Program-made: the position numbers and the translations under genes
Notes under the pieces: generated by a model
Databases searched by the model: none
The model's input: the letters and a program-made list of their open reading frames with translations, nothing else
What the model was told of the DNA's origin: nothing
In this document: positions 11,699-47,513 of the stretch, in pieces
Layout of the letters: each line of letters starts with the position of its first letter
How positions within the stretch are numbered: position 1 is the first letter of the stretch
Assembly: GCA_041740355.1 (NCBI GenBank)
Contig: JBGSMD010000063.1
Span: forward strand, 53,002-117,001
Length of the DNA: 64,000 nt
DNA from: Bdellovibrionota bacterium
GTDB taxonomy: Bacteria; Bdellovibrionota_C; UBA2361; CALJRW01
Direction of reading: 5' to 3'

Positions 11699-11730
11699 TA
11701 AATCAAGCCTAAACTTCTTCAAAGAGATCA

Positions 11731-15672: not shown

Positions 15673-17355
15673 TTATAGGACTGGTACATCCCCAGCACTA
15701 GCAGGAGTTTCATTATCACCAATATTGTTTGTATTACCATAACCGATACTACCAAACTCACCGCTACCCCAACACCTAACACTACCGGTATCCAGTAATA
15801 CACATGTATGAATACCTCCGGCGGCTAGTTGAACCACGGTGCCACCGACATTTACATTTCCGACACTTGCTGGAGTTTCATTGTCACCAATATTATTAGT
15901 ATTGCCATAGCCAAGCTGACCATTTAAGCCTCGGCCCCAACACCTAACATTTCCCGTATCTAGTAATGCACAGGTTTTCTTAAAACCAGTAGCTATCTGA
16001 ACTACGGTGCCTCCGACATTTACATTTCCGACATTGGCTGGAGTTTCATTGTCACCAATATTATTAGTATTTCCATAACCAAGCTCCCCATCCGAACCTT
16101 CGCCCCAGCATCTTACATTTCCCGTATCTAGTAATGCACAGGTGTGATTCCCTGAAGCGGCCAATTGAACTACATTGCCACCAATATTCACAGCCTCATA
16201 GATAAGAGGTCCAATAATGTCATAAGTGCCCCCATGGCCAAGTTGGCCATAATAACCATCCCCCCAACACTTAACATTTCCTGAATTAACCAAGGCACAT
16301 GTATGATTACTTCCTGCTACTATTTGAGTTACAGTTTCATTTTCAAAATTGTAATCTTGAATAATAACAGACTCAAAGTTAGCAGGAGCTTCATCGTCTC
16401 CAACATTAGTAGTATTTCCGTTGCCCAGTTGGCCATTTCGTCCATAACCCCAACATTTAACTTGTCCAGTATTTAAAAGTGCACAGGTATGATTTGAGCC
16501 AGCAGAGATTTGAGTAACAGTCCCGCCAACATTAACATCTCCAGCATTGGCAGGTGTTTCAAAGTATCCAACAGAAGCAGTACTACCATATCCAAGTACA
16601 CCATAGTTACCACTCCCCCAACACCTAACTTTACCTGTGTCAAGTAGGGCACAGGTATGACCCCCTCCAGTAGCGATATCAACGACATTCCCGCCAACAA
16701 TTACATCCCCAACGCTTGCTGGTGTTTCATCATCTCCAATATTATAATGTACAGGAACAGTTGCATATCCAAGTTTACCAATAAACCCCTCACCCCAACA
16801 TCTAACTGCTCCAGTATCTAGTAGAACACAAGTATGACTAAATCCTGCCGATATTTTTTGAACATCTAAAGGTATATTACATAAGTTAGAACAAGCATCG
16901 TCATTAATATTATTTCCATCATCACACTGTTCTCCAGACTGCTTGACTCCATCTCCACAAATAGGCGTTGTGCATATATTAGTACAGGAGTCCTCATTGA
17001 TCGTATTCCCATCATCACACTGTTCAGCAATATCAACATCAACTACACCATTCCCACAGGTATGATTACAAGCAACCAGTCCTGAGACATGAAGCTTCTG
17101 CATTTTTTTTGATTGATTATTATATTTATTAATTCCGGTTGAGGCGAACAACTTCTTAAAATTAGAACTTAGCTTCTTATAGGTAATAAATTTCTTTTTT
17201 TGAATCTTCCCTGGCTTCCAAGAACCATTAACGTTTTTACAAACATAATTTATACCATCCTTTTCAACGTTTACCGTCTGGGCAAAAGCCGCCCCGGAGA
17301 ATAAAAATAGGCAGACTAGCAAAGATGAGAAGATAAATTGAAATGAGTTTTTCAT
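15673..17355 (-). CDS. Secreted RCC1-repeat (beta-propeller) protein with N-terminal Myxococcus-type cysteine-rich repeats
   Basis: A signal peptide is followed by CGNG..D..EQCDDGN...C..C repeats (x2-3). Then come about nine repeats of HTCALLDTG.V+CWG.G..GQLGYGNT..IGDNETPA (RCC1 signature). A start at 17355 (MKNSF...) is preferred over 17364. Confidence 0.8.
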   Translation of the reverse strand: MKNSFQFIFSSLLVCLFLFSGAAFAQTVNVEKDGINYVCKNVNGSWKPGKIQKKKFITYKKLSSNFKKLFASTGINKYNNQSKKMQKLHVSGLVACNHTCGNGVVDVDIAEQCDDGNTINEDSCTNICTTPICGDGVKQSGEQCDDGNNINDDACSNLCNIPLDVQKISAGFSHTCVLLDTGAVRCWGEGFIGKLGYATVPVHYNIGDDETPASVGDVIVGGNVVDIATGGGHTCALLDTGKVRCWGSGNYGVLGYGSTASVGYFETPANAGDVNVGGTVTQISAGSNHTCALLNTGQVKCWGYGRNGQLGNGNTTNVGDDEAPANFESVIIQDYNFENETVTQIVAGSNHTCALVNSGNVKCWGDGYYGQLGHGGTYDIIGPLIYEAVNIGGNVVQLAASGNHTCALLDTGNVRCWGEGSDGELGYGNTNNIGDNETPANVGNVNVGGTVVQIATGFKKTCALLDTGNVRCWGRGLNGQLGYGNTNNIGDNETPASVGNVNVGGTVVQLAAGGIHTCVLLDTGSVRCWGSGEFGSIGYGNTNNIGDNETPASAGDVPVL

Positions 17356-17408
17356 ATGGATCATTAAAAAAAGGATTAACTAACTTGTTAGGACTCGGAT
17401 CTTCTTGT

Positions 17409-17730: not shown

Positions 17731-19401
17731 TTACAATACTGGCACATCGCCTGCACTAGCCGGCGTTTCGTCATCACCTATATCGTTGATATTACCATAT
17801 CCAAGATTACCCTCATCCCCATATCCCCAACATCTTACAGCACCAGTATCTAGAAGTGCACAAGTATGACTAACAATATAAGAAATTCTAGCATTTGAAG
17901 TAGTTATTTGAGTAACAGTGCCACCAACATTAATATCACCAACGCTAGCTGGAACCTCATTGTCTCCAATCGTTGTAAAATTTCCATAACCAAGTTGACC
18001 AGAACCTCCAAAACCCCAACACTTCACGGCACCAGTATCAAGTAGTGCGCAAGTGTGAGTTTTACCCGCAGATATTTGGGTTACCGTACCGCCAACATCA
18101 ACGTTATCAATACTTGCAGGTGTTTCATTGTCACCAACACTATATATATTACCGTAACCAAGTTGGCCCTCTTCGGCATATCCCCAACATTTTACTGCTC
18201 CAGTAGCTAAAAGCGCACAAGTATGATTATTGCCAGCAGATATTTGAGTTACTGTACCACCAACATTTATATCACCAACATTAGCTGGAGCCTCATTATC
18301 TCCAATAGTTTCAACATTTCCATAACCAAGTTGACCAGAACCTCCAAACCCCCAACACCTAACGGCACCATTATCAAGTAGTGCGCAAGTGTGACCACTG
18401 CCCACAGATATTTGAGTTACAGTACCGCCAACATCAACGTTACCAATACTAGCAGGTGTTTCATTGTCACCAATACTATTTGTATTACCGTAACCAAGTC
18501 GGCCATTTCCTCCATCGCCCCAACATTTTACAGCTCCAGTATCTAAAAGGGCGCAAGTATGCTTTCTACCAGCCGATATTTGAGTTACCGTACCGCCAAC
18601 ATCAACGTTACCAATACTAGCAGGTGTTTCATTGTCACCAATACTATTTGTATTACCGTAACCAAGTCGGCCATTTCCTCCATCGCCCCAACATCTTACT
18701 GCTCCAGTATCTAAGAGTGCGCATGTATGTTCTTCTCCCGCTGATACTTGAGTTATAGTACCACCTACATTCACATCTCCAACACTAGTTGGAGTTTCGT
18801 TATCTCCAATATTGATTACATTAGCATATCCAAGTTGACCAGAACCTCCATAGCCCCAACATTTAACATTACCAGTCTCCACAAGGGCACAGGTATGCGC
18901 ACCACCAGCGACTATTTCCAAGACTTTGTATAGACAAGTATTCGGACAAGTATCATCATCGTTACTATTCCCATCATCGCATTGTTCATCAGACTGGACA
19001 ATTCCATCACCACATTCTGGAAAATTACAAGAATTAGTACATAAGTCTGTGCTAACTAAATTCCCATCATCACACTGCTCACCCATGGATACGTCTAATA
19101 TTGTGTTTCCACAGGTATGACTACACGCAACTAACCCAGCTATATGCAGGTTCTTCATTTTTAGTGATTGCTTATTATATTTTTTTAAGGCAGTAGCTAC
19201 ATATAATTTCTTTAGATCTGATTGTAGTTTCTTGAAAGTTATAAATTTCTTTTTCTGGATTTTACCAGGTTTCCATGAGCCTTTAATTTGACTGCAAACA
19301 AACGTTTGTCCATCTTTAGTAACGGTAACTGTCTGTGCAAAAACTGAAGATGATAAACAAAAGAATACACAAGCGGATAATAATGAAAGCCTAATTTTCA
19401 T
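17731..19401 (-). CDS. Secreted RCC1-repeat protein with cysteine-rich repeats (paralog of 15673-17355)
   Basis: It has the same architecture and the same repeat consensus. The N-terminal 100 aa are co-linear with the paralog (…GSWKPGKIQKKKFIT.KKL…). Confidence 0.8.
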   Translation of the reverse strand: MKIRLSLLSACVFFCLSSSVFAQTVTVTKDGQTFVCSQIKGSWKPGKIQKKKFITFKKLQSDLKKLYVATALKKYNKQSLKMKNLHIAGLVACSHTCGNTILDVSMGEQCDDGNLVSTDLCTNSCNFPECGDGIVQSDEQCDDGNSNDDDTCPNTCLYKVLEIVAGGAHTCALVETGNVKCWGYGGSGQLGYANVINIGDNETPTSVGDVNVGGTITQVSAGEEHTCALLDTGAVRCWGDGGNGRLGYGNTNSIGDNETPASIGNVDVGGTVTQISAGRKHTCALLDTGAVKCWGDGGNGRLGYGNTNSIGDNETPASIGNVDVGGTVTQISVGSGHTCALLDNGAVRCWGFGGSGQLGYGNVETIGDNEAPANVGDINVGGTVTQISAGNNHTCALLATGAVKCWGYAEEGQLGYGNIYSVGDNETPASIDNVDVGGTVTQISAGKTHTCALLDTGAVKCWGFGGSGQLGYGNFTTIGDNEVPASVGDINVGGTVTQITTSNARISYIVSHTCALLDTGAVRCWGYGDEGNLGYGNINDIGDDETPASAGDVPVL

Positions 19402-19530: not shown

Positions 19531-19722
19531 AGGAAAGAAGATTAAAGCTTCTTAGATACCAAGAAGAGTAACAAGCACTCCTTAAACTGTCCTGAAAGTT
19601 AAGAATATGAAGTAAACAACCGAGTCTACTTCAGGCTTTAACTCCACACCTAACAATCTAATATTACTAATTAAAATGATTTATGATTGAATAAGTGTAT
19701 AATAAACTATACACTTAACTCA

Positions 19723-20103
19723 ATGAAAAGATCTCTTCCTTCTCATCTTAACACAACTAACCTCGCAATTATCCGATGTCTCTACCTAAGCGACTTCCCA
19801 GTTCCACTTCGTGAAATCGCTTATCGAACTAATCTTCAGATTAGAACTGTACAACTGATCTTAGAAAAATTTTTGAAAGAAAAAATTGTTCGAAAAAAAC
19901 GGAAAGGGCAACGGACTTCCTATACTATTAATAAAGAAGATCCCTACATTATTTTGCTTAACGAATTTATCGAGAAGCAAAATATGATGGAACTAAATCT
20001 GGCATCTCAAGAATATTCTGAAAGAGCTACTAATGCTCTACCCAATATTGTCAAAATGTATGAATTAGTAACTAGAGGTAAGAGAGATTATGAATCTAGA
20101 TGA
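19723..20103 (+). CDS. Small winged-helix DNA-binding protein (putative antitoxin/regulator)
   Basis: LREIAYRTNLQIRTVQLILEKFLKEKIVRKKRKGQRTSYTIN has an HTH-plus-wing pattern. The ATG at 19723 is preferred over the TTG at 19687. It overlaps the next gene by 14 nt. Confidence 0.5.
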   Translation: MKRSLPSHLNTTNLAIIRCLYLSDFPVPLREIAYRTNLQIRTVQLILEKFLKEKIVRKKRKGQRTSYTINKEDPYIILLNEFIEKQNMMELNLASQEYSERATNALPNIVKMYELVTRGKRDYESR

Positions 20104-20725
20104 TATTTTTGAATATGCTGTTAAAGAACTACATGAGCGTAAATGTAAATTTGCCGTTGCTGGCGGAATAACTTCGTCTGTCTATCGCAGCGAAGTTAGA
20201 TTAACGATGGATGCAGACATACTGATCTATTCTGGAAGCGACTCTCAAAAAATTGCTGAAGAAATTTTAAACAAAATAAATTATTCTGTTTCTTCTGCAA
20301 CGATTGCTAATCTTTCCCCCGCTCCGCGAATGAATAAGAAATCTCTACCAACCCTGATTATTGTTGGCCGACCTAAAGATAAGGGAGATATTGGACTAGA
20401 TTTCATTCTCCCTGATATGCCGTGGTTCCCAAAGGCAATAAGTCGCGCGCAAGATAATTTAATTGATTTTGGGTTTGGAAAAATCCCCTGTTTAACAATT
20501 GAAGATTTTATTATTTCTAAGTTATTTGCTTATCAACTAGCTCCCAAGAGAATCAAAGATCTAGACGATCTAACTTCTGTCTTTCAAAAAAAATCAAAGC
20601 TAGATCTTTCCTATCTTTGCGCTGAGTTAGAAAGATTAAAGATTGGAATACCAAAAGAACTCTATCAAATCGCACCGAAGGCACTACGAGTTCTTAGTAA
20701 AAGAATGAAGATCTCCTCTAAATGA
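20090..20725 (+). CDS. Nucleotidyltransferase-fold protein (pol-beta superfamily; AbiEii/toxin-like)
   Basis: FAVAGGITSSVY...RLTMDADILIY matches the hG[GS]-x(9-13)-Dh[DE]h NTase signature. It is translationally coupled to the wHTH gene. Confidence 0.55.
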   Translation: MNLDDIFEYAVKELHERKCKFAVAGGITSSVYRSEVRLTMDADILIYSGSDSQKIAEEILNKINYSVSSATIANLSPAPRMNKKSLPTLIIVGRPKDKGDIGLDFILPDMPWFPKAISRAQDNLIDFGFGKIPCLTIEDFIISKLFAYQLAPKRIKDLDDLTSVFQKKSKLDLSYLCAELERLKIGIPKELYQIAPKALRVLSKRMKISSK

Positions 20726-26847: not shown

Positions 26848-27024
26848 CTAAAAGGTTCTCTTTGCAACCTTCTGAAAAGCCAAGGATCTCTTTACACATA
26901 ATGGATCACTGTAATCGGAAAAGTGCTGGCTTTTTAAGTCCTGCACAAAAAGGATTACTAAGTAAACTAAAGTGCCAAGCAGCGCTAAAGTGTCTAGGCT
27001 AAAGATTGTAGTTAAGTATGTCAT
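26848..27024 (-). CDS. Possible small single-TM protein (58 aa)
   Basis: MTYLTTIFSLDTLALLGTLVYLVILFV... has one hydrophobic helix. The longer 79-aa ORF-track version runs into a repeat hairpin. This is a weak call. Confidence 0.2.
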   Translation of the reverse strand: MTYLTTIFSLDTLALLGTLVYLVILFVQDLKSQHFSDYSDPLCVKRSLAFQKVAKRTF

Positions 27025-27050
27025 GTTAAAACCTCGTCTAAAATTATAAA

Positions 27051-27077
27051 CCCTCCGCAGATGAAATTTGCGGAGGG
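27051..27077. repeat. Family-1 hairpin module only (CCCTCCGCA-N9-TGCGGAGGG)
   Basis: The same 9-bp stem and a near-identical loop (GATGAAATT) begin the long copies at 30.7 and 37.9 kb. A second hairpin, ACCTGAG-N7-CTCAGGT, follows. Confidence 0.6.
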
Positions 27078-27308
27078 TGAGTGTCACCTGAGTCTTGTTC
27101 TCAGGTTCTAGGATATTTCTATATCAAAGCTTTATGTCTTTCAAGTATATTTCTATGTTTTAGTTAAATTCTATAAAAATGTTCTAATGCACGATCTCCC
27201 TGAGAACTTAGCAATAGAAATTAGTGAGTATTTTAAGGTAGTTATGAATTCTTGTAATTTAAGCACAATATCATAAGATACAAGCTCTTAACTTAATACT
27301 CAGTTCGC

Positions 27309-29260: not shown

Positions 29261-29701
29261 ATGAAAAATAAATTATTCCCTGTTATGTCGGCAGCACTTC
29301 TTAGCTTACTTTTTCTTTCCGCCTGCGGAGGAAGTAGCTCCAATGATAAAAGTGTCATAATCGAAGGGGATCTAAATCAAGGGGCAAGCTCTGACCATAA
29401 GTTATTCAAACATTCCGAAGGTGAGCACATTGGAGAAGTTGAAATCTGTGCCTTAGGTGAATGTTCGACCACTAATACTGAAGGAGAATGGGGTTTTGCG
29501 ACTTCGGAGGATCTAAACGGCAATGAAGTTTCTTTTAAATTTACGGGTCATGGCATTGATACGACAACAATCGTAAAAATTCCAGATGCTGAAGAAAATG
29601 TATTAATCAAATTTGTGCATAGTGCCAATGTTGTGACTATTGCTGAAATGTTAGTTGATGGACAGGAAGATCATTCTAATCATGACCACGCTCACGAATA
29701 G
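29261..29701 (+). CDS. Lipoprotein with His-rich C terminus (possible metal binding)
   Basis: Lipobox LSAC|GG is present, and the protein ends with EDHSNHDHAHE. Confidence 0.5.
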   Translation: MKNKLFPVMSAALLSLLFLSACGGSSSNDKSVIIEGDLNQGASSDHKLFKHSEGEHIGEVEICALGECSTTNTEGEWGFATSEDLNGNEVSFKFTGHGIDTTTIVKIPDAEENVLIKFVHSANVVTIAEMLVDGQEDHSNHDHAHE

Positions 29702-29708
29702 TTCTACA

Positions 29709-30686
29709 ATGAAAAAATTTGTTCTGGGTATCTTTTTTACTTCCTTGTTATTCGCAACTAGCGCTTGGGCTTGCGACCCTTGCGCAATATTTAATGCCGC
29801 TAGGCTTGATGGACATGAGCCCAACAGTTGGCGAGTTTCACTAGGAGAGCAGTATACTAATTTTAAAAAAGGGAAAAGTTACCCAGAAAATTCCTTTCGC
29901 AATAAGGAGTTGGTTAAAGGATTTAGTAATACCCAGTTTGCTCTGTCCTATGATTTTAGTGAAGTTTTAGGACTACAACTAAGTATTCCCTTAATCTCTC
30001 GCTATGTTGAAGAAATCAAAGACTATCAAACTTCCAACAATTGGGATGCCGGCCTTGGTGATATTAGTCTAATAGCTTCTTACTCCCCAGTTCATATTAA
30101 AAAGTTAGACTGGACAGTGCTAACTGGTGTTTCTGCTGGAATAAAATTACCGACTGGAGACACAGGTGTATTAGAAGAAATTAGTGCTGACCCAGATGCG
30201 CAAGTAAAAGCTCAGTTTTTAAAGCACCACCCAGTTGGCTCTACCTCTGGTGGACGCGCCTTAACTTATGGATCAGGATCTTATGATTATATCATGGGAG
30301 CAAACAATTTACTTCGATATCAAAACTTTTTATTACTAAGCAATATTCAATATACGATCCGCACTGAAGGTGATTTTAATTACGAATTTGATAATGATTT
30401 AATTTGGGCCGTACTTCCAGCCTACTATCTTTTATTAGAACATGACTACACTGTGGCTAGTGGTCTAGGCCTTTCTGGCGAACATAAAGGTAAAGATCGA
30501 TTAGCTGGTAGCGAACTTGATGGTTCAGATATTTCTAATATCTACTTAGGACCTGAGTTAATCTTAAGCTTTAAAGGTAAATATTCTGCACAAATTGGAT
30601 TTGATTTTCGGGTCTCCAATAAAGATCGCGAAGCCGATATTGTGCCGGAGAATAGAGTACGAGCCAGTTTGGCTTATCGTTTTTAA
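29709..30686 (+). CDS. Outer-membrane beta-barrel protein with N-terminal CxxC (WACDPCAIF)
   Basis: It has a signal peptide (MKKFVLGIFFTSLLFATSAWA), alternating beta-strand patterns and a C-terminal ...SLAYRF (aromatic terminus). The start was trimmed from 29655 to 29709. Confidence 0.55.
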   Translation: MKKFVLGIFFTSLLFATSAWACDPCAIFNAARLDGHEPNSWRVSLGEQYTNFKKGKSYPENSFRNKELVKGFSNTQFALSYDFSEVLGLQLSIPLISRYVEEIKDYQTSNNWDAGLGDISLIASYSPVHIKKLDWTVLTGVSAGIKLPTGDTGVLEEISADPDAQVKAQFLKHHPVGSTSGGRALTYGSGSYDYIMGANNLLRYQNFLLLSNIQYTIRTEGDFNYEFDNDLIWAVLPAYYLLLEHDYTVASGLGLSGEHKGKDRLAGSELDGSDISNIYLGPELILSFKGKYSAQIGFDFRVSNKDREADIVPENRVRASLAYRF

Positions 30687-30687
30687 A

Positions 30688-30918
30688 CTCTCCACAGATG
30701 AAATTTGCGGAGGGCGAGCGTAGTCTTAGCTTGTTTATCGGACGTAGCATTTGCGAAGTCTGAAACCAAGTTACGCCGTAGAAGACAAAACTGATACTCA
30801 CCGCTCTTTGTGCATTCGGTTTAGTATTATTTTCTCCGGCAAAACCCTTTTTGCAACAGGATTTTACTCGCTCACTTTGCTTTTCATTTTTTCTCAAAAA
30901 TGAAAAGCGGTGAGTATA
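30688..30918. repeat. Family-1 structured repeat, copy A (~230 nt)
   Basis: It aligns by eye over most of its length with 37863-38116. The modules are hairpin CTCCACA.../TGCGGAG, the block GACGTAGCATTTGCGAAGTCTGAA.CCAAGTT, the long-range pair ACTCACCGCT...AGCGGTGAGT, and an A/T hairpin TTTTCATTTTT-tctc-AAAAATGAAAA. Confidence 0.7.
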
Positions 30919-31040
30919 TAGTATCGTTTTCAATCTAGTCGCTTGGTATATTAAATGCGTAGCACTTGTAGCGACCCTAGGGGGGTGCTTAGGTTAAAAT
31001 GCTTATTGCATAAGCATTTTAACTTGGGAAAACAAATATA

Positions 31041-31100
31041 CTATAGTCATCCCAATAAATAATTTCCGCTAGGAAATTATAAAACAGATCATGACTATAG
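31041..31100. repeat. Family-2-related nested hairpin
   Basis: Outer arms CTATAGTCAT...ATGACTATAG enclose ATAATTTCC-gcta-GGAAATTAT. Confidence 0.55.
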
Positions 31101-31263
31101 AAGCGACCAGCGGGAGCCAAAAGATAAATAGTAAACCCAACTTTAAAAAACAGAGTTAAACCATCGGTTTATCTATAAACTTAGATCCTTAAATTACTTC
31201 AGGGTAAAAAAAATAAGGGTCAGCAAAAGTCTTAGTTAATCTATTTATCGGAAATCTATTTTT

Positions 31264-31333
31264 GGGTTTACTATATAATCCGAGATACGCAAAAAGTAAT
31301 TCCCAATGGAAATTACTTTTTGGGCTCACTATA
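31264..31333. repeat. Family-2 repeat, partial copy
   Basis: AAAAAGTAATTCC-caat-GGAAATTACTTTTT is flanked by GGGTTTACTATA / GGGCTCACTATA. Confidence 0.6.
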
Positions 31334-37840: not shown

Positions 37841-37862
37841 ATACTGCTTGGAATTGAATAAA

Positions 37863-38116
37863 CCCTCCGCAGATAACTTGCGGAGGGCGAGCGTAATCTT
37901 GGCTTTTTTACCAGACGTAGCATTTGCGAAGTCTGAAGCCAAGTTGCTCCGTAGAAGATAAAACCAATACTCACCGCTGATTTGCGTAGGGTTTGGTAGT
38001 ATTTTCTTCAGCAAAATCTGTCTCCCTCTTTCGCCAAAGCTTCAGAGGACAATTCGCCAGGATTTTGCTCGTTCACCTTACTTTCATTTTTTATAAAAAA
38101 TGAAAAGCGGTGAGCA
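37863..38116. repeat. Family-1 structured repeat, copy B (~254 nt)
   Basis: It has the same module order as copy A, a perfect first hairpin CCCTCCGCA-N9-TGCGGAGGG, and an internal insertion relative to copy A. Confidence 0.7.
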
Positions 38117-38296
38117 TCTTATAATAATATCAGATAGTTATAGCGAGGGTGAGCTCAAGCTTTAATTTTATGATGATCTTAATTTAAACAAGAAGACCTG
38201 TTCCGTAAAGGGGGTCTTACAAATAGTCTTAATTTCTCAAAAAACACTGCTACTTCATAATTTGAAAATACTAGCCATGTAGGTTAGTTTAGCCCT

Positions 38297-38788
38297 ATGA
38301 CATTTTCCAGAACGGATGAAAAATACCAGACTTTAGAGACTCACCTAAGCCAGGATCAGTATTTAATGGTACATCTAAACCCTACTTACCCTGGTGTTTT
38401 AATACCAGAGAATTTTCTTGCTTCACCAACTCTTACACTAAAGTTAAGTTATAATTTTCAAGGAGTTACCGTTATCACCCCAGAATTAATTACGGCAGAA
38501 CTTATGTTTAATGGTAAACATTTTTCCTGCCGAATTCCACTGGCAGCGATTTGGGGTTGCACAACTATTGCTGAGAAAAACTTCATTTGGCCAGAAAGTC
38601 TTTCAGCAAATTCCTATGAGAGTTTAGCCACAGAAATGGAAAGTATTAAAAAACCTAAGTTAGCTGTTAATAAACAAGAAGATATTTCTACACCCTCTTC
38701 TAATCTTAAGAAAATTGAATCTGATCCCAAGCAGGAGGAACCAGTAGCAGAAAATAAAAAACGTCCAAACCTCACTCGAATTAAATAA
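38297..38788 (+). CDS. sspB: ClpXP adaptor SspB-like (stringent starvation protein B)
   Basis: The N-terminal domain pattern (…MVHLNPTYPGVLIPE…TLKLS…F.G….C.IPL.AIWG) is followed by an acidic/low-complexity linker and a basic C-terminal tail, KKRPNLTRIK, resembling the ClpX-binding tail of SspB. Confidence 0.55.
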   Translation: MTFSRTDEKYQTLETHLSQDQYLMVHLNPTYPGVLIPENFLASPTLTLKLSYNFQGVTVITPELITAELMFNGKHFSCRIPLAAIWGCTTIAEKNFIWPESLSANSYESLATEMESIKKPKLAVNKQEDISTPSSNLKKIESDPKQEEPVAENKKRPNLTRIK

Positions 38789-38813: not shown

Positions 38814-41150
38814 ATGATTAATTTAAAAGTTTTGATTGGCTCAACTAAGATTAATTATAATCTTATATCTTTAATTCTAGCTCTTACTTGTGTCCATCTG
38901 AGCATTTCACAAATAATTTCTAGTGAACCAATAAGTGGCTGGGACACTCCAGGGCATCTCTACTTAACATATAAGATGCAAGAATTCTTAGGATTAGGAA
39001 CCTGGTTTGGCTATGATTCAAGCTGGTTCTCAGGCACAGCTCTCTTTGTGCTGTATCCACCACTAACATATATATTAATTAACATATTACATCTTATAAC
39101 TTTCTCTTCTGATCTAACTTATAGTTTTAACCTATTTATTTACCTTCAAGCTCAATTATTAGTAATAATTTTTTACTGGATAACAAAATATATTTTAGGT
39201 GTCGAATATCGGAAATATGTGATGTTGGTGCTCACCTTAATGTTACATACAAACATTATCTATTCGACCCACTTTATAGGATTAGCAGGATTATTTTACG
39301 CAGGCTTTCTATCAAATTGTACAGGGCTAATTCTATTCTTGCTGCTATTTGCACAAATCAGAAAACTGGAATTAAACATTATTAGCTCCTCTTATACTTC
39401 AATATTAATATTGAGCTTGATTTTACTTAACCATATAATCTCAGCAATATTTACTTTAATATTTATATCAATTTACTTAGCCCTTCAGGGAAATTCAAGG
39501 GTAGCGAAAAAATGGTTTGCTGTTATCGCAGTCGCTTCGCTGGTTGCTTCCCCTTATTACTGGATATTTATTGCCAATCTAGAATTTTCATCCTCAGAAG
39601 CTATCGGGCTTCACGGATCTTTTCCCGATCCCTTATTAGTCCTCTTTCCAAATCTTAATATTGAACATTTTGTGAATATGTTTAATGCCGAATTTAGCGA
39701 TACCTTCAGTTTTTTTAACTATAAAATCGAGTTGCCATTAATCATCAGTCAATTTCCATATTATGCGCTGATTGCTTTTTATTTTGGAATTAAAGGAAGT
39801 CTTCTAATTGTTAAAAGTCAAAAAAAACTACTGGGGTTTCTTTTTACAATTACTATCCTCTTCATATTCTTACCTCGCGCTTACTTAACAAACCTAACTA
39901 GCCTGACAATCCACTACTATCGCTTTACTGGCCTGCTGAGTTTCATGTTTATTTTTATAATTGCCTCTGGGATTAAACATTCTGACTACACACATAGCAA
40001 TTTGAAAAAAATACTCGGAGGTATATTTCTTGCTCTGATTTTACTACTAACAACGTCGTATCAGATGCTTTTCATTAGTGATTCTAGACATCAAGAATTT
40101 AAGCTACACCTGAGCGATTATCAAGGATATCAAAACCTAGATAAGGTTGCTAAATACCTTAAAGAGAACAATCTAACTGCAGGTGTTGCAATTGAGCAAA
40201 GCTATAATTTCCTCCTACAAGTCGGTTCCCTTCATGCCGTTTCATATCTTTTCCCGCATAAGTATAAAATCCCAATCAAGACTGGACTACTAGCTGAGTC
40301 AGCTTATTACTCGTCATTAATTAATCCCACTTTAGGTCTTCAAACAAATCACATGGTTTGGGGAAGTAAAGAATTATACCTTTTTAACTATTTTAATAAC
40401 CCAAAAAAAAATCCGAATTTATTTATTGAGAAGCTAAGGCTTTTAGGAGTAAAAGTATTAATCACAACAGATCGGGACAGCTTCAAAAAAATTAAAACCC
40501 TAACTCTTCAAAATCGTTTTCTAGTACTAAATAAAAAGATTGCTAATTATGCTATATTTGTTTTGCCAGAGTTGTCCCTAAAGAAAACCAACTCAATCAA
40601 GCCCCGATATCTATTTTTTGATTCAAAAGAATTAGCATTCAAAATGTTTTTTAGAGACTGGTTTGCTTATGATTCAACGATTAATTTTAACCTAGTATAC
40701 GATTACTTCAATTTGACTCAAAAAGATCCTAGCTTATTAAGTCAATTTTCAGGATTAGTCTTTTCCGCTGAGAATACAAATTCTTGTCTTAAGAATTACG
40801 AAAAGCTGAAGAGCTTGCAAGGTGATCTGAATGAAAAGTTAATCCCCTTAATTGATCAACAAAACCAGCAGCAAGAAAACCCAGCAATCCAAAAGCATAA
40901 GAGAGACTTTTATGATTTAGATATTATTTTCTTGGGTAAGAAGTGTTTTAAAGATCCGAACTGGAAAGTTAAGTGGATTAAAACAAATAATCCAGAAGAG
41001 AGAATGGCAAAACTAACAAAACTAGTTCAAAAAAATAAGCTAAAAATTCTCGTTAATAATAGACTGATTAATACGGAAGATACGTTTAGCCCACTAAATG
41101 GTAATAATTCATTTATCCAAACCCCGTTTTTTACTCTAAAGGTTAGGTAG
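38814..41150 (+). CDS. Large polytopic membrane protein (778 aa), GT-C/YfhO-like architecture
   Basis: The N-terminal ~430 aa hold about 13 or more hydrophobic helices, followed by a soluble ~340-aa C-terminal domain. The gene looks very AT-rich by eye. The family assignment is a guess from architecture only. Confidence 0.55.
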   Translation: MINLKVLIGSTKINYNLISLILALTCVHLSISQIISSEPISGWDTPGHLYLTYKMQEFLGLGTWFGYDSSWFSGTALFVLYPPLTYILINILHLITFSSDLTYSFNLFIYLQAQLLVIIFYWITKYILGVEYRKYVMLVLTLMLHTNIIYSTHFIGLAGLFYAGFLSNCTGLILFLLLFAQIRKLELNIISSSYTSILILSLILLNHIISAIFTLIFISIYLALQGNSRVAKKWFAVIAVASLVASPYYWIFIANLEFSSSEAIGLHGSFPDPLLVLFPNLNIEHFVNMFNAEFSDTFSFFNYKIELPLIISQFPYYALIAFYFGIKGSLLIVKSQKKLLGFLFTITILFIFLPRAYLTNLTSLTIHYYRFTGLLSFMFIFIIASGIKHSDYTHSNLKKILGGIFLALILLLTTSYQMLFISDSRHQEFKLHLSDYQGYQNLDKVAKYLKENNLTAGVAIEQSYNFLLQVGSLHAVSYLFPHKYKIPIKTGLLAESAYYSSLINPTLGLQTNHMVWGSKELYLFNYFNNPKKNPNLFIEKLRLLGVKVLITTDRDSFKKIKTLTLQNRFLVLNKKIANYAIFVLPELSLKKTNSIKPRYLFFDSKELAFKMFFRDWFAYDSTINFNLVYDYFNLTQKDPSLLSQFSGLVFSAENTNSCLKNYEKLKSLQGDLNEKLIPLIDQQNQQQENPAIQKHKRDFYDLDIIFLGKKCFKDPNWKVKWIKTNNPEERMAKLTKLVQKNKLKILVNNRLINTEDTFSPLNGNNSFIQTPFFTLKVR

Positions 41151-41153
41151 TAG

Positions 41154-41312
41154 CTAGTTATAATTCATTTTATCTGCTGTAAATTTTAATTTTTGTGAGC
41201 TAGCTCTTCCCATAGCAGTTACGGCAACGATGGTTACGATAGCGATTAACGCAACAAGTAGTCCATACTCAACTAATGATGCCCCTTTTTTATTTTTATT
41301 TATTTTTTTCAT
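41154..41312 (-). CDS. flp: Flp/Fap family type IVb pilin (52 aa; not in the ORF track)
   Basis: Hand translation gives MKKINKNKKG|ASLVEYGLLVALIAIVTIVAVTAMGRASSQKLKFTADKMNYN*. The G-x-x-x-x-EY motif plus a hydrophobic helix is the Flp signature. Confidence 0.7.
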   Translation of the reverse strand: MKKINKNKKGASLVEYGLLVALIAIVTIVAVTAMGRASSQKLKFTADKMNYN

Positions 41313-41363
41313 ATTCTTCTTTATTGGGTTTCCCCGTTAAATACGCCTGATTGATAAATCTAG

Positions 41364-41960
41364 TTAAATATCTAATTTTTTGCAATTAAGATGGAAATTA
41401 TTAGGTAAATCTACAGTTAGTGTAAACTGATATGCGCCTGCTACTGCTATATTTAATTTAATATTCTGACTGTTTTCGCCATTGAAAAGTGTAAAATCTT
41501 GATTCAAAGTAAGATTAGATCCCTCTTGTTCGAATCCAAATACAAAAGGGCTAGTCCAATCTTGATCTGCGATTTTAAATTCATACTCTCCGGGAATTAA
41601 GGGTAATACTACTCGATAGTTATTCCCGCCAACTGGCAAAAGCTGATTATAAGCTCCCGCTTTCCAATTCTCAATTCGATTAACACGAAGAAACACATTA
41701 CGATCAATACTTTTTATTGGATTATTAGCACTATTTTCTTGCGTAATTGGATTAAAATAAACTACAACGGCCAATAATAAGATTACAAGAAAAATTATCC
41801 CTCCAAAAATCTTGGCATAAGATTCCATCTTTTTCCTAAACCTATATTGTTCTGCGAATTTTTTTAAATTAGCAGTGCTTCTTGATCGAACCGAATCTTG
41901 AATAACATCGCCCAGACCTAATTGATCCTGTCTTTTAAACGTTCTTTTATTAAATATCAT
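41364..41960 (-). CDS. Single-pass membrane protein with C-terminal beta-sandwich-like (CBM-like) domain
   Basis: It has one TM helix (IFGGIIFLVILLLAVVVYF). The C-terminal GEYEFKIADQDWTSPFVFG resembles carbohydrate-binding-module patterns. This is a weak call. Confidence 0.4.
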   Translation of the reverse strand: MIFNKRTFKRQDQLGLGDVIQDSVRSRSTANLKKFAEQYRFRKKMESYAKIFGGIIFLVILLLAVVVYFNPITQENSANNPIKSIDRNVFLRVNRIENWKAGAYNQLLPVGGNNYRVVLPLIPGEYEFKIADQDWTSPFVFGFEQEGSNLTLNQDFTLFNGENSQNIKLNIAVAGAYQFTLTVDLPNNFHLNCKKLDI

Positions 41961-42165: not shown

Positions 42166-42194
42166 TTGTTAGCACTCTGGTTTAGGTGTATATT
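42166..42194 (+). promoter_or_regulatory. Candidate sigma-70-type promoter for the RT operon (TTGTTA-N17-TATATT)
   Basis: The hexamers were read directly from the sequence with a 17-nt spacer, about 80 nt upstream of the RT ATG. In AT-rich DNA such matches are common by chance. Confidence 0.25.
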
Positions 42195-42272
42195 TATATT
42201 TGGTTGGTTTGTGCAACCTATCGATTAGAACATATTAAAAAAGACAAACGGACCCAATCAGCAATCTTAGTA

Positions 42273-43604
42273 ATGAACCTACTGCAAAAACTCTCCTCCC
42301 GTGAAAACTTTTTAGCAATCCTTGATATTTTAAAAAGTAAAAAAAAATCAAAATCTTGGATTCTACAATCTGCCCCGATTGAAAAATCAATATCGCTTGC
42401 TTGGTGTATTTATAACCAAGACTTACTTATCAAGTATTATTTAAAAAACTTAAGAAATCATTCCTATCGCCCACAAGTAAGAATTAAAATGACTATTTTT
42501 ATAGATAAACAAAGGATTATCTATAATATTAACTGGGTTGATAAAATTATGGACTATGCCCTGACTAAACTACTTTTTGATGTCAGTGCGGAATTTTTCT
42601 CCGATCAATTATTTTCCTATCGCCAAGGATTTTCTAATAAAAAAGCAGTAAAAAGCCTCTGTAAATATATCAAGAATAATCAAGGCTCAGAGATCTACAT
42701 TGCCAAACGAGATATTAAATCATACTTCGATAATATTAATAGCGGGATTTTAACCTCACAAATTAAGGAGAAATGTGGCGAGCAAGATTCCTTTTTTTGG
42801 AAACTTTTAAGTAGTTTCTTACAACCAGAATATTATGATCCGGAGCTAGATCTTCAGGAGCAACTACTTCTAGGAATACCAACTGGATCTTGCATCTCTA
42901 ACTTTGCTGCGAATTTTTATTTGCACGACCTTGATCATTTAGCTGTAAACAATTTAGACTTTTATGTTCGCTATGGAGACGATATAATTTTTGCTGATCG
43001 GGATAAGGATAAGCTAAATCAGCTTCTTAATACTTATCAAGAAAAAATTTTGGAACGCGATCTTAAATTCCACCCAGACAAAGATCTATTCCTGAAAATC
43101 GGACCAACTTTAGCAAGCTCCAAAGATTCGCCCTATCAAAGCAAAAAAGTATTTGATTACCTAGGTTACCAAATTAGCGACGAAGGACTTATCTTCCTAA
43201 AGTCTTATAAATTTAAAAAACTAAAAAAGGATATTAAGAGTAGACTATTCAACTCCTATCGCACATATTACCGTGCTGGACTAAGTAAGGATCTGCAAAT
43301 GTCTAATCTGATTAAAGACCTAAATGGTACGATGCGAGATTTAAATTACTATAATCATTTCGCCGATCTTGTCCTATTCACGACTGATAAACCACGACTT
43401 AAGGAATTTGATATTTGGATTGCTCAAACAATTATTGCCATGACTCATAACTGTTCTCGCGCTAATGCGTTTGGGAAAATTTCCTACAGACAAATACGCG
43501 AGGCAGGTCTATTCTCGATTCTAAATTACAAGAATATTTATCCTAGAAGAAATGAAGTTCTCCGATCTACAAAAAATCTCCAAAGCAGATCAGCAACGAC
43601 GTAA
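42273..43604 (+). CDS. Reverse transcriptase (RNA-directed DNA polymerase), orphan/unclassified
   Basis: RT motifs in order: YRPQ...I....R.IY (1), D+I..YAL..LL (2), RQGFS...AV, KRDIKSYFDNI (3), LGIPTGSCISNFAANFYLHDLD (4), YVRYGDDIIF (5; YGDD at 42972-42983), FHPDKDLF (6), FDYLGYQI (7). A ~150-aa C-terminal extension follows. The ATG at 42273 is preferred over the GTG at 42186. Confidence 0.85.
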   Translation: MNLLQKLSSRENFLAILDILKSKKKSKSWILQSAPIEKSISLAWCIYNQDLLIKYYLKNLRNHSYRPQVRIKMTIFIDKQRIIYNINWVDKIMDYALTKLLFDVSAEFFSDQLFSYRQGFSNKKAVKSLCKYIKNNQGSEIYIAKRDIKSYFDNINSGILTSQIKEKCGEQDSFFWKLLSSFLQPEYYDPELDLQEQLLLGIPTGSCISNFAANFYLHDLDHLAVNNLDFYVRYGDDIIFADRDKDKLNQLLNTYQEKILERDLKFHPDKDLFLKIGPTLASSKDSPYQSKKVFDYLGYQISDEGLIFLKSYKFKKLKKDIKSRLFNSYRTYYRAGLSKDLQMSNLIKDLNGTMRDLNYYNHFADLVLFTTDKPRLKEFDIWIAQTIIAMTHNCSRANAFGKISYRQIREAGLFSILNYKNIYPRRNEVLRSTKNLQSRSATT

Positions 43605-45786
43605 TCTTGTCCGTAAAGGACTAGAGCAGTATGATCTCAGATCCTACTTACGCTACTTAAGGTATCGAATTAAATGGCCAATACTTTTTAAGTTACTTTC
43701 TCGACTAATTGTTATTGTTGAAGTGATTCTAATTCAACAACTATTTACTTATAATATTTTTGCAGACTTAACTCTCTATATTTTCATTATTTTTATCAGT
43801 CGAAGCGCCCTAAAAGGTATTACTCAATACTATCGTGTGCAACTAATGCCCCTAGCGACGGCAAAAAACATTTCTGGCCTAAATATCGCCCTAAGTAAGG
43901 CTCTGATCATAAACATCTTTTCTGCCTTTTTATTAGCCTTGGTCATTAGCATTCTTTGTCTACTCTTAGATTTATCGGATCAGTTAAACACTTACTTTAT
44001 AATTTCCTGGTGCTTATTAATCCCGCTAGAGCAAATTACCACGCAGCTTTGGAATACCGTCTATCTTAATACCCGACTAAGGCGAAGTGCCTTGATTACT
44101 TTCATTTGCCGCATGCTTCCAATCATTTCACTATTAGCTTTTAGCAGCTTGATTGGCCCCCTAAGTTACATTCTGGGTACATTTATGGCGAGATTATTAG
44201 AAAGTTTTTACTTATCGCGTGTCGCAATTTTAGCATTAAAGTTCAAATTTACATTAAAGAAGAAATCGAGCAGTTTGTTACAAGTTATCGGACAGTATTT
44301 TAAAAATCAAAAGGCGCGCCAATACCTTTACTTTAATGCCATCCTACCCTGTTATTTTTTGGGTCTTGGATTAATCATCTTTGAACGGGGAGTCGGTACC
44401 TGGATTACAAATATTATTTATTTTTTTATTTTAAATTTTGCAGTTTTTTTTACTACACAAATTTCACGCTCAATTCAATTTGACATCTACTCCTGCTTTA
44501 AAAAAGGGCAGGTAAAAAAAGCAACGTTCTTAGGCAAAAGAATTGTAAAATATACTTTGAACTTTGCTGTAATTCTAGCAGCTAGCTTTATCTATTTACT
44601 CTTAAATTCCAAAAGGTTTTACCTTTTCATACCAATTAGCTTAGAATATTTTCTATTAATCTTACCCTTGGCAGTAATTGCTCAAACGTTTTTTTTTTCG
44701 ATCTATGCCCAAATCCAATCCCTAGCAATCGATCGTTATTTCACCAAGCTAATCTTCATTAGCTTCCTCCTAATAGGCTTACCAATTCAGTTCCTTCTAT
44801 TTCATTATTACCTCGCAAATCTACAAGCGATCTACTGGACTGAAATCCTTCTCTTTGTGTTTGTAGGTACACTATTATATTTAAATTTGAACTTTAATCT
44901 CAGTCCCTTTTTAATAAAGTATATCAAAAGAGAGCGGAAGGCTCTGCCCCTGTGCCAACCAACTGCACTCCAATTAGAGCTCCGAACTAAATATATCAAA
45001 ACTGGCTCAGCTTATCTTTACATATTATCTTATTATGAGCGGGATGCTTTCTGGGAACGCATTAAGTATTCACTTCCCCAAACAAAAGATTTCTTAATTA
45101 CCCGGTACTCTGCTGGGCTCTTCCTGCTTTCATCTCATCAACCACTGACGGATCTTGATTTTCGCAACCTAAGCTTTGTTGCCAAAAAGCAAATAGATTT
45201 AAGCCAAGAGCTACTGCAGACTTTACTGGATATTTATACTTTTTACTATTCTCTAGAATTTAGAAATAGCTCATTCCAAAAAATACGTAATAAGTTCTAT
45301 CTTAATAGATCCATCAAAGAAGAATTGTATCAGTTAGCGGAATTAAAGAGGCCAGTAGATCAAATAATATCAGAGTTGCTTGGAGCTCCTAGGATCGTCT
45401 TCAAAAATGGTAAAATTTCTTGTTTGGGCAAAGTCAGTAATAAACTTTATAATTTTGCTTTGAACCAATATTTTTATCCTGACAATAACTTGGCTCCCGC
45501 AATTCAAGGATCCCAATTAACAATCAGAATTAATAATACGGAAACAATTAGTTTCGACTTAAGGCACTTGAATAGTTACCTAATTGGACAAGTTAATAAA
45601 AAGATTTTTTTCCTCAATCAATATTATTATTTTAAGAATATTATTGATCCCCATTTGCCATATGCAGCTAGCATTCAAGATTATTTAATAGCACGGAGAC
45701 TGATTCATAAACATACCCGTCGCTGTAAAACGAGAAAGGCTGACCATTTAGCAGATCTCAATTTTTATAATCATAAATTAGTATGA
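43552..45786 (+). CDS. Polytopic (~12 TM) membrane protein with ~290-aa soluble C-terminal domain; RT-operon gene 2
   Basis: About 12 hydrophobic helices were counted by eye between aa ~40 and ~450 (MOP/MATE-flippase-like spacing). No motif was recognised in the C-terminal domain. It overlaps the RT gene by 53 nt and the PLD gene by 4 nt. Confidence 0.65.
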   Translation: MKFSDLQKISKADQQRRNLVRKGLEQYDLRSYLRYLRYRIKWPILFKLLSRLIVIVEVILIQQLFTYNIFADLTLYIFIIFISRSALKGITQYYRVQLMPLATAKNISGLNIALSKALIINIFSAFLLALVISILCLLLDLSDQLNTYFIISWCLLIPLEQITTQLWNTVYLNTRLRRSALITFICRMLPIISLLAFSSLIGPLSYILGTFMARLLESFYLSRVAILALKFKFTLKKKSSSLLQVIGQYFKNQKARQYLYFNAILPCYFLGLGLIIFERGVGTWITNIIYFFILNFAVFFTTQISRSIQFDIYSCFKKGQVKKATFLGKRIVKYTLNFAVILAASFIYLLLNSKRFYLFIPISLEYFLLILPLAVIAQTFFFSIYAQIQSLAIDRYFTKLIFISFLLIGLPIQFLLFHYYLANLQAIYWTEILLFVFVGTLLYLNLNFNLSPFLIKYIKRERKALPLCQPTALQLELRTKYIKTGSAYLYILSYYERDAFWERIKYSLPQTKDFLITRYSAGLFLLSSHQPLTDLDFRNLSFVAKKQIDLSQELLQTLLDIYTFYYSLEFRNSSFQKIRNKFYLNRSIKEELYQLAELKRPVDQIISELLGAPRIVFKNGKISCLGKVSNKLYNFALNQYFYPDNNLAPAIQGSQLTIRINNTETISFDLRHLNSYLIGQVNKKIFFLNQYYYFKNIIDPHLPYAASIQDYLIARRLIHKHTRRCKTRKADHLADLNFYNHKLV

Positions 45787-47513
45787 AATCCAAAAGTTTA
45801 ATCTACTTTATTTTCATTTTACTAAGCTTAATTATTGGACTATCGCTCCACGCTGAGAGAATCGAAATACCTCTTTACGTTCTACGAAAAGCAATTACTT
45901 GTTCTAGTGTTCAAGAGAAAACATTGGAAGTTGTTTTCCAAAACAAGTCTTATTTGATCGCATTTGACCATATTTACAGTACTCCCGTTATTAATGCAGG
46001 TTTAGTCTGTCAACGTTTGATCCGCTACTTAAAAGCAGCGCCTTCGCCCAATTTAATCATCCCTATCTCCAAAAAATATACCAAGTTCGGCCATGATATT
46101 TATGTCGATGAATCAGGATTTTTAGAAAAAGCTTGCCTAGAACAAGGGCTTTGTAAGCGAAACATCTTGGATACTTTTAAGCCCAAAAAAATACTCCGTG
46201 AATGTCATGGGAAAATTACACTAAACGGCTTATTGGCAAAATCTCGTCCCAAAATTCCTGGCTATCAAACAAAAATCATTAAAGATGTTACAATTAAAAT
46301 TCACCCATTTCATCCATTTATCAATATTCTAAATGAATACCTTCAAGATCCAATTTTAAAGGAAATTCATGCCTCTACTATGTCAATTGGTAATCAAGCC
46401 CTAGACGATATTTCTGCCAGCACGCAAAGCTACAATAAAAAGGCTGTAATTAATTATGATGCCGGAATTTCATTGTTCAATTCTCAACAAGGCCAAATTG
46501 CTAAGGCTATTACTAAGTCACCTAAAGTTCATTTTTTACCAATGACCAGTGGTAATAATTTTAGCCAATTTTATCACATCAAATTTATTGCTAGCCCACA
46601 AACTAACAAGTCAATGTTGGCCTCAATGAATTTAGCCTCAGTAGATCGAACAGCATATCTCGACCTAAATTTTTTCTTTGAGGATCCTACTATTCGCGAT
46701 GAGTTTTTATCCATCTCAAATAATAATAATCGAAGATTTTGTGATTATTCTGAAGATTATGACTGCTTAGCAAATTTTTATGATGAAAGATCAAAATCCC
46801 ATATTCCACTGGTAATAAATAGAAGTTGTCCGACAAGCAATACCGAAACTACTATCAAAAGATCTGGTTACTTTGTAAACTCCGAAGATGATGATCTCAA
46901 ACAATTTGTGATAAACTTTATTAATCAAGCAAAACAAGAAATCATTGTAACTTCCTACAAGTTAACAGAAAGAGCCATTGCCAAGGCCTTATTAAACAAG
47001 CAGCAAGAAGGGCTTAAAGTTCACGCCATGTTAGCCTTTAAATCTCCCGCATTGGGCGAATTGAAAAGCCATTTCTACTCGGGGGAAGTTGTTAAGGAAG
47101 AGTATCCTTTTCCTCACATGAAAATTATTATTATCGATCGCCGACTAATGCTATTTGGAACTGCGAACTTCACGATTAATGCTTTAAATAATACAACTGA
47201 ATTAATTGGAGTTACTGATAATCAGCAAGCAATTAAAACAGCGTTAGATCATGTCGCAGTTTTTACACAGTCCAAAGATCTGGCCTTAAGTAAAAACATT
47301 TCCAATACTCCTAAGCAGAAAAATTATGTAGCAGTGACGAGCTCTACGCAGATCAAACCAGTGAATTTACCTTTTACTAAACCGCTTGAGCAGAAATGGT
47401 TATCAAACTACCGAGAGGTAACAAAGGAAGGCGAAAAATTATTAGATAAGTGTGATTTAAGGCACCTTATTTTTATAACTAAGGCAACTTATTTGGAATG
47501 TCTTAAAAAATAA
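45783..47513 (+). CDS. PLD-superfamily (HKD) enzyme with N-terminal signal peptide/anchor; RT-operon gene 3
   Basis: The canonical HKD motif HMKIIIIDRRLMLFGTANFT (HxKxxxxD-x6-GTxN) lies at 47115-47168. A degenerate first motif, HIKFIASP...ASMN, lies at 46575-46641. The N terminus MKSKSLIYFIFILLSLIIGLSLHA is signal-like. Confidence 0.8.
   Translation: MKSKSLIYFIFILLSLIIGLSLHAERIEIPLYVLRKAITCSSVQEKTLEVVFQNKSYLIAFDHIYSTPVINAGLVCQRLIRYLKAAPSPNLIIPISKKYTKFGHDIYVDESGFLEKACLEQGLCKRNILDTFKPKKILRECHGKITLNGLLAKSRPKIPGYQTKIIKDVTIKIHPFHPFINILNEYLQDPILKEIHASTMSIGNQALDDISASTQSYNKKAVINYDAGISLFNSQQGQIAKAITKSPKVHFLPMTSGNNFSQFYHIKFIASPQTNKSMLASMNLASVDRTAYLDLNFFFEDPTIRDEFLSISNNNNRRFCDYSEDYDCLANFYDERSKSHIPLVINRSCPTSNTETTIKRSGYFVNSEDDDLKQFVINFINQAKQEIIVTSYKLTERAIAKALLNKQQEGLKVHAMLAFKSPALGELKSHFYSGEVVKEEYPFPHMKIIIIDRRLMLFGTANFTINALNNTTELIGVTDNQQAIKTALDHVAVFTQSKDLALSKNISNTPKQKNYVAVTSSTQIKPVNLPFTKPLEQKWLSNYREVTKEGEKLLDKCDLRHLIFITKATYLECLKK

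Follow-up and report, generated by a model that had tools for sequence, protein, structure and literature searches.

A small, hairpin-rich non-coding repeat, probably mobile, in a Bdellovibrionota bacterium

Introduction

What kind of element is a folded, repeated stretch of DNA that trails one gene and precedes another in the same genome? A sequence-only reading of the 64-kb stretch analysed here (the window) had described such a repeat, Family-1, and offered three options for it: an sRNA gene family, a riboregulator or a novel mobile hairpin element. Repeats of comparable build have been described in other bacteria. Of two closely related species, one has the BOX, RUP and SPRITE repeats at higher density, and BOX is built of modules that also occur alone (PMC3049150, Croucher et al. 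2011). Likewise, the genomic distribution of bcr1 is not conserved, and direct repeats flank its copies (PMC3184786, Delihas 2011 review). We here examine the copies of Family-1, their ends, their sites in related genomes and their predicted fold, and weigh the possible readings against one another.

Results

Two full copies and one fragment lie within 11 kb

Direct reading and alignment confirm the two long copies, A and B, as genuine; they are co-linear and share one orientation. They are 84% identical over 232 aligned columns, and 25 of the 38 substitutions between them are transitions. With copy A as the BLASTN query against the window, copy B is returned at E 2.5e-49 and a fragment, copy C, at E 1e-9, the latter bearing out the lone recurrence of the first hairpin at 27051-27077. 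The proposed repeat search, run on the 64-kb window with BLASTN and with an nhmmer profile of A and B, recovered A, B and C and nothing more; 2.2 copies are thus seen in the window, all inside 11 kb (27.0-38.1 kb). The copies are as follows:

30687-30921, no strand assigned: copy A, full element, 235 nt, bounded by flanking direct repeats
about 37862-38122, no strand assigned: copy B, full element, about 260 nt, right end good to about 8 nt either way
27047-27087, no strand assigned: partial copy C, about 41 nt, a lone hairpin 1 (27051-27077) plus TGAGTGT

The left limits of A and B (to within 1 nt) and the presence of both copies agree with the earlier description, while the right ends were moved a few bases outward, to 30921 and about 38122, because of the flanking direct repeat and the empty sites of a relative described below. 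With these limits, the element ends read AC(C/T)CTCC(G/A)C...GCGGTGAG.

Copy A lies directly 3' of the stop codon (30684-30686) of a 343-aa ORF at 29655-30686, for which a Pfam search gave no match. Copy B lies between parC (minus strand) and a 163-aa ORF at 38297-38788, with its hairpin-1 end 22 nt upstream of the parC ATG (37840, minus strand). The name sspB for the 163-aa ORF is borne out in part: the ORF itself has no Pfam match, and its positional counterparts in relatives have weak Pfam SspB matches. Downstream of copy C, at a distance of 26 nt, a conserved 58-aa ORF begins on the minus strand (ATG at 27024).

Copy A is flanked by a significant direct repeat

We examined the sequences on both sides of the element and found a repeat around copy A:

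30675-30686, plus strand: left direct repeat of copy A, TATCGTTTTTAA, made up of the final three codons of the 343-aa gene and its stop
30922-30933, plus strand: right direct repeat of copy A, TATCGTTTTCAA, a putative target-site duplication

The repeat has a perfect 9-bp core, TATCGTTTT, at 30675-30683 and 30922-30930, and matches at 11 of 12 positions when extended. Among random site pairs of equal spacing in the same window, at least 9 bp were matched in 0.36% of trials (P = 0.0036). The simplest reading is that the repeat is a target-site duplication left by insertion at a gene end; the insertion point itself falls within the T-run of a terminator-like hairpin (30661-30675). Copy B is flanked by a 5-nt repeat (AATAA) only, which is not significant (P = 0.29). 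Since the flanks of copy B differ from those of the relative by 7-12 unalignable bases, the copy B site may have been rearranged. At the left junction all three copies have TAA before the boundary and AC(C/T)CTCC after it.

The sequence-only reading had noted that inverted repeats of the MITE type are missing from the ends, and our comparison agrees with it: the first 40 nt match the reverse complement of the last 40 nt no better than shuffled sequences do (P 0.88 for A and 1.0 for B). A weak subterminal resemblance, CNCNCCGC, exists between the element ends. The end hairpins are dissimilar, with a G+C stem (CCCTCCGCA) at one end and an A/T stem (TTTTCATTTTT) at the other.

The element is missing from both full-copy sites in a close relative

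A close relative with 95% identical ParC is represented by Logan contig L004 and the NCBI MAG contig L005 (GCA_031385045.1). Both contigs run uninterrupted over sites A and B, and the element is missing at both sites. The sspB-parC spacer is 157 nt in the relative versus 456 nt in the window, and its alignment contains one window-only block, whose edges match the limits of the A/B similarity to within 8 nt. At site A, the convergent gene ends are 1 nt apart in the relative versus 648 nt in the window, where the spacer consists of copy A and other hairpin repeats. The unit that is repeated in the window is therefore the unit that is present or absent between genomes. Site C differs from this pattern: the relative has an unrelated 38 nt of similar length there, a replacement instead of a clean empty site, and the sequence after copy C is ancestral flank common to the relative.

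Additionally, we inspected the region upstream of parC in more distant relatives. In those with ParC 69%, 66% and 64% identical, the spacers are 194, 181 and 66 nt long and show no similarity to the element, and the element is likewise absent from the parC region of contigs L006-L008 and L028-L031. Because the relatives at 64-69% also have no element upstream of parC, the more parsimonious event is an insertion in the window lineage. At site A, where the comparison is with the close relative alone and without an outgroup, a deletion in the relative keeps some small probability. The claim of mobility is built on one close relative, three outgroups (at site B) and one flanking repeat. The named ParC homologues, which are 58-60% identical, carry the labels Oligoflexia, Bdellovibrionales or Bdellovibrionota, and the G+C content of the window is 36.7%.

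The predicted fold is preserved between the two copies

The internal parts of the element are listed below, none with an assigned strand:

30688-30714: hairpin 1 of copy A, CTCTCCACA-N9-TGCGGAGGG, 1 nt past the stop codon
37863-37887: hairpin 1 of copy B, CCCTCCGCA-N7-TGCGGAGGG
30741-30764: 24-nt block of copy A, GACGTAGCATTTGCGAAGTCTGAA, identical in A and B, at the tip of hairpin 2
30794-30805: internal arm of a 12-bp inverted repeat in copy A, ATACTCACCGCT, found as a self reverse-complement match
30906-30917: terminal arm of the same repeat in copy A, AGCGGTGAGTAT, perfect against the internal arm
37967-37978: internal arm of the 12-bp inverted repeat in copy B
38106-38117: terminal arm in copy B, AGCGGTGAGCAT, matching at 11 of 12 positions
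30879-30908 (A) and 38082-38105 (B): A/T-rich hairpin, stem kept
about 38024-38052: B-specific insertion of 29 nt with a hairpin of its own, inside the loop of hairpin 4, an optional module

All of the features described earlier are recovered here. Hairpin 1 is present in both long copies; the long-range helix corresponds to the 12-bp inverted repeat, which connects the right end to an internal site; the A/T hairpin has a constant stem and an altered loop (CTCA in A, ATAA in B); and the internal insertion of copy B folds as a hairpin. The conserved block is present as 24 identical nucleotides, yet it is unremarkable, given that simple arithmetic at 84% identity predicts about 0.6 identical runs of that length.

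We predicted the folding of both strands of both copies, which against shuffles gave z values of -4.5 to -7.5. The right-end arm of the 12-bp inverted repeat also pairs locally, which gives alternative folds, and in nhmmer the core of the element is partly self-complementary. To examine the preservation of pairs, we folded one copy, counted the pairs surviving in the other and compared this count with randomised substitutions of the same types. The observed A/B substitutions break 7-10 pairs versus 13.5-14.6 expected if randomly placed (P 0.002-0.04). The consensus folds of the two strands are near equal (-54.1 kcal/mol for plus and -53.9 for minus), and pair preservation is the same on both. 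The predicted structure is preserved between A and B, with two sequences fitting either strand and a role as RNA or as DNA equally. Choosing a strand from the asymmetry of G-U and A-C pairs was likewise set aside as uninformative, with two sequences and both strands folding equally well.

An RNA gene or leader is an unlikely reading

A preserved fold raises the alternative that Family-1 is a multi-copy sRNA gene or a cis-regulatory RNA module on the minus strand, starting near the GGTGAG end and finishing at hairpin 1; copies B and C would then act on the gene directly downstream, parC and the 58-aa ORF, respectively. We regard this as unlikely, though several features speak for it. Apart from the strong predicted structure with its pair-preserving substitutions, the minus strand has TTTA (UUUA(U/A) as RNA) after the 9-bp G+C stem of hairpin 1 in each of the three copies, this hairpin stands 22 nt (B) and 26 nt (C) upstream of a minus-strand start codon, and several helices pair through G-U on the minus strand where the plus strand has A-C.

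The searches for RNA families and transcription signals point the other way. Rfam 15 at the gathering score identifies three tRNAs only in the window, all outside the element. A permissive scan (E <= 10, 26.9-38.4 kb) places only rli36 and mir-471 inside the element, both at chance level, with rli36 scoring 24.7 bits versus a threshold of 50; the Rfam scan that had been suggested thus returned no known RNA family at the element. A scan for one promoter type, sigma-70-like, found no consensus promoter on the minus strand in or just upstream of the element, and one marginal plus-strand site reading outward from copy B. On the minus strand, hairpin 1 is borderline terminator-like and fails the T-tract criterion of the terminator scan. 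Since a strong terminator 22 nt before the essential parC would be harmful and silence it, hairpin 1 probably terminates weakly if at all. Moreover, the near-equal folding of the plus strand leaves no strand signal, and the absence of the element at both sites in the closest relative, and at parC in the distant ones, argues against a conserved gene or leader. Readings as a riboswitch or leader, a retron, a group II intron or a type I toxin-antitoxin gene were also tried and set aside, as the Rfam and six-frame scans gave them no support; for the last of these, the copies share no ORF that opens with a start codon, and none of the six frames encodes a hydrophobic peptide.

Hairpin-end transposition, local duplication and coding are less plausible still

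The element might instead travel as single-stranded DNA, with a Y1 HUH transposase recognising its subterminal hairpins and inserting it beside a TAA or TAAA motif, as an IS200/IS605-derived PATE or a REP/RAYT-type hairpin-end element, and might carry a guide-RNA scaffold. In IS608, an offset usually separates the cleavage site from the hairpin. In Family-1, hairpin 1 starts 1 nt from the boundary and leaves no room for such an offset. Otherwise the resemblance is considerable: hairpins occur at or near both ends, terminal inverted repeats are missing, TAA(A) stands at all three left junctions as the short conserved motif beside one end does in PATEs, and the lone G+C-rich hairpin of copy C is reminiscent of a REP unit. 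PATEs have no genes, retain hairpin ends without terminal inverted repeats and often encode wRNAs (PMC10055086, Meers et al. 2023). In contrast to Family-1, however, PATE end hairpins resemble each other, and elements of this kind make no target duplication, whereas copy A has its significant 9-12-bp direct repeat. We also found no partner TnpA or TnpB, and neither a Y1 transposase nor IscB, encoded in the window. Taken together, we consider this route improbable.

A second possibility is that the copies are remnants of local segmental duplication or gene conversion in an 11-kb neighbourhood, not mobile at all, and were lost or never gained by the relative. The confinement of all copies to 27.0-38.1 kb of the 64-kb window and the lack of copies in the collections searched would fit this. 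Duplication or conversion would nevertheless have to account for sharp boundaries with the same left boundary in three different contexts, for a present/absent unit that coincides with the repeated unit, for the flanking direct repeat at copy A and for the finding that no sequence past the element is duplicated. It therefore has a slim chance in our judgement.

The earlier reading had taken the element to be non-coding, having observed that both copies are open on the minus strand, in a 120-aa ORF at 30571-30933(-) and in an extended 'ParC' ORF, and that the frame in which the shared bases are read differs between the two. Both ORFs exist and six-frame translation reproduces the difference in frame. 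A minus frame is open through all of copy A, with a single stop in the same frame of B. Nonetheless, the 38 substitutions are distributed over the codon phases as 12/12/14 (P = 0.9); six-frame translations of A and B have no match at E <= 10 among 5.8 billion proteins, and share neither an ORF with a start codon nor a ribosome-binding site. The 120-aa ORF of copy A overlaps the 3' end of the neighbouring gene, and the 810-aa 'ParC' ORF is an upstream extension, the true start at ATG 37840 giving 752 aa as in all relatives. With neither codon phase nor protein match, a decayed protein-coding gene or a conserved small peptide can be dismissed as next to impossible.

Searches outside the window

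We next looked for the element in larger collections. The exact 20-mer TAGCATTTGCGAAGTCTGAA has a single chance match inside a protein gene in 185,579 species genomes and another in the JGI metagenomes (the two genes being pentapeptide-repeat-like and TctC-like); these scans cover one exact 20-mer, and a more degenerate pattern might reach further. Three scans of viral contigs with 17-18-mers gave seed-only chance matches, and BLAST against plasmids and phages gave no match to the element. No copy was found in about 135 kb of the relatives' DNA or in the 3 kb past the right window end.

By exact-protein matching, the organism was recovered only as short Logan contigs of SRR28170465. One of these, L003, begins at window position 37965, inside copy B, and another, L032, ends at about 31294 in a hairpin of the second repeat family described below. 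Such breaks in repeats hint that further repeat copies exist elsewhere. We rejected them, however, as an unreliable guide to copy number, because L032 at its opposite end is interrupted within a gene. The element may bear on where short-read contigs break, although of these ends two are inside repeats and another is inside a gene.

A non-autonomous mobile repeat is the favoured reading

On balance, we conclude that Family-1 is probably a small (about 235-260 nt), non-coding, hairpin-rich, modular and non-autonomous mobile repeat that was inserted after the split from the closest relative. This reading is favoured because the two full copies and the fragment are highly significant, because the relative with 95% identical ParC has no element at either full-copy site, and because perfect 9-bp direct repeats enclose copy A. 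It is further favoured by the shared left junction, by a non-coding, structured sequence whose substitutions keep pairs, by the presence of further hairpin repeat families in spacers of the window where the relative's are compact, and by the like behaviour of BOX, RUP, SPRITE and bcr1. Of the three options offered at the outset, the mobile hairpin element thus gains from the empty orthologous sites and the flanking repeat, while a riboregulator tied to a gene loses ground, as copy A is upstream of no gene and the relatives' parC genes are without the element.

Several observations weigh against mobility. The copies are few and confined to 11 kb, with none in the other collections searched; terminal inverted repeats are missing and the flanking repeat of copy B is not significant; site C in the relative holds a replacement of similar length; and the 64-kb window encodes no transposase.

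If Family-1 is mobile, its targets would be A/T-rich spots with a TAA at gene boundaries, and the transposase, acting in trans, would come from another part of the genome. Staggered cleavage would produce a duplication of roughly 9-12 bp as at copy A, and the hairpins would be either a recognition structure or merely tolerated. After insertion the element would be co-transcribed with its neighbours, copy B joining the 5' region of parC and copy A trailing the stop of the 343-aa gene, and any altered expression of a neighbour would be a side effect, not the purpose. The lone hairpin of C and the optional hairpin in B suggest a modular build comparable to the pneumococcal BOX modules.

Most likely, then, Family-1 is no new RNA gene but a small non-autonomous mobile element of an ordinary sort, a new family of a familiar kind that opens no new mechanism. 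It adds a repeat family for a poorly sampled phylum (Bdellovibrionota/Oligoflexia-like, here with metagenomic assemblies only). The long spacers of the window genome consist of stacked hairpin repeats, where the nearest relative's spacers go down to 1 nt. For annotation, the element accounts for two false calls, the 58 aa added to the N-terminus of ParC and the 120-aa ORF. Located 22 nt upstream of the essential parC, copy B may influence topoisomerase IV expression.

Far less probable is a version in which the mobile unit is a structured-RNA gene and not inert DNA or, more speculatively, is copied through RNA like a bacterial SINE. The candidate RNA, a predicted minus-strand product of about 240 nt closed by hairpin 1, could spread to TAA-containing sites; if true, the 5' regions of genes such as the essential parC would be rewired. 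Target-primed reverse transcription would fit the unequal flanking repeats (12 nt at A, at most 5 nt at B) and the missing inverted ends. A link to the reverse transcriptase operon nearby was considered and rejected, as the relative has the operon without the element.

Comparison with known small repeats

Having named a non-autonomous mobile repeat as the favoured reading, we compared Family-1 with established families. Like pneumococcal BOX, RUP and SPRITE, it is small, non-coding and intergenic, is predicted to fold extensively if transcribed, is present in one species but scarce in, or missing from, a close relative, and would likely affect co-transcribed genes. With BOX it shares an optional internal module and lone modules, and its hairpin 1 on the minus strand recalls the terminator-like SPRITE. 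Unlike Family-1, BOX and RUP have terminal inverted repeats; moreover, these families show no sequence similarity to it and belong to Firmicutes, whereas the host here is Bdellovibrionota-like.

The bcr1/Group A bcr repeats of the Bacillus cereus group are about 150-400 nt long, with a stable multi-helix fold and compensatory changes (PMC3184786), and as in Family-1 their distribution varies between related strains and short direct repeats flank them. Yet bcr1 has 5-bp direct repeats at every copy, whereas Family-1 has a 9-12-bp repeat at one copy only, and the two have no sequence similarity.

Classical MITEs (Correia/NEMIS, RUP) resemble Family-1 in being non-autonomous, of similar size, intergenic and insertion-polymorphic (PMC3184786). 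As for target duplication, Family-1 has a putative one at copy A and only the non-significant 5-nt repeat at copy B. It is likewise small and non-coding, and related genomes differ in having or lacking it. The terminal inverted repeats that define MITEs are missing, however, and its only good inverted repeat, of 12 bp, links the right end to an internal site. Because the terminal inverted-repeat test failed, we file Family-1 with the BOX/bcr1-like repeats and not with classical MITEs.

Other features of the window

A second repeat family in the window consists of a hairpin, AAAAAGTAATTNCC...GGNAATTACTTTTT, with the look of a bidirectional terminator, at 11646-11702, 31290-31333, 50758-50897 and 53998-54144. 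A TAGTTATGACAAAAAGT...TTTTTGTCATAAC palindrome adjoins it at 50.8 and 54.0 kb, and the combined units are 93-140 nt long and 82-88% identical. In the 648-nt spacer next to copy A, the remainder (30934-31333) is a mosaic of other hairpins, among them a perfect GTTAAAATGCTTAT/ATAAGCATTTTAAC hairpin at about 31002-31032 and, at about 31041-31100, a unit of about 60 nt with 10-bp inverted ends, CTATAGTCAT...ATGACTATAG, that resembles 54113-54186.

The 58-aa ORF downstream of copy C (26848-27024, minus strand; MTYLTTIFSLDTLALLGTLVYLVILFVQDLK...) has a hydrophobic N-terminal half and no Pfam match. It is kept in the relative, where changes at third codon positions dominate, and on this ground the ORF probably encodes a genuine small membrane protein.

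Between sspB and the reverse transcriptase operon (38814-41960) lie genes for a protein of 778 aa that matches no family and a small Flp/Fap pilin-like protein, as well as a 198-aa ORF. All three are absent at this position in the close relative, and by this comparison the segment is a lineage-specific insertion of about 3.4 kb. The operon itself (42186-47513, plus strand) has three genes, encoding a reverse transcriptase, a protein of 744 aa that matches no family and a PLD/DrmC-like nuclease of 576 aa. The reverse transcriptase (472 aa, Pfam RVT_1) matches the PADLOC model RT_UG26 best (9e-33), with Drt9, Drt3a and Drt2 weaker. Also present in L004/L005, where it directly abuts sspB, the operon looks like a defence-associated RT system of uncommon composition.

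Two adjacent paralogous RCC1-repeat proteins of 563 and 556 aa are encoded at 15673-17364 and 17731-19401 (minus strand); they have 168-nt periodic repeats and a DUF4215 domain and constitute the largest direct-repeat families of the window. At 19687-20725 (plus strand), an AbiEii-like nucleotidyltransferase toxin (211 aa) follows a 138-aa DUF7342-like protein, a gene pair that is likely a type IV toxin-antitoxin module. Finally, a 36-bp near-perfect palindrome, 83% complementary and with adjacent arms, occupies 62347-62418, directly after the tRNA at 62274-62346.
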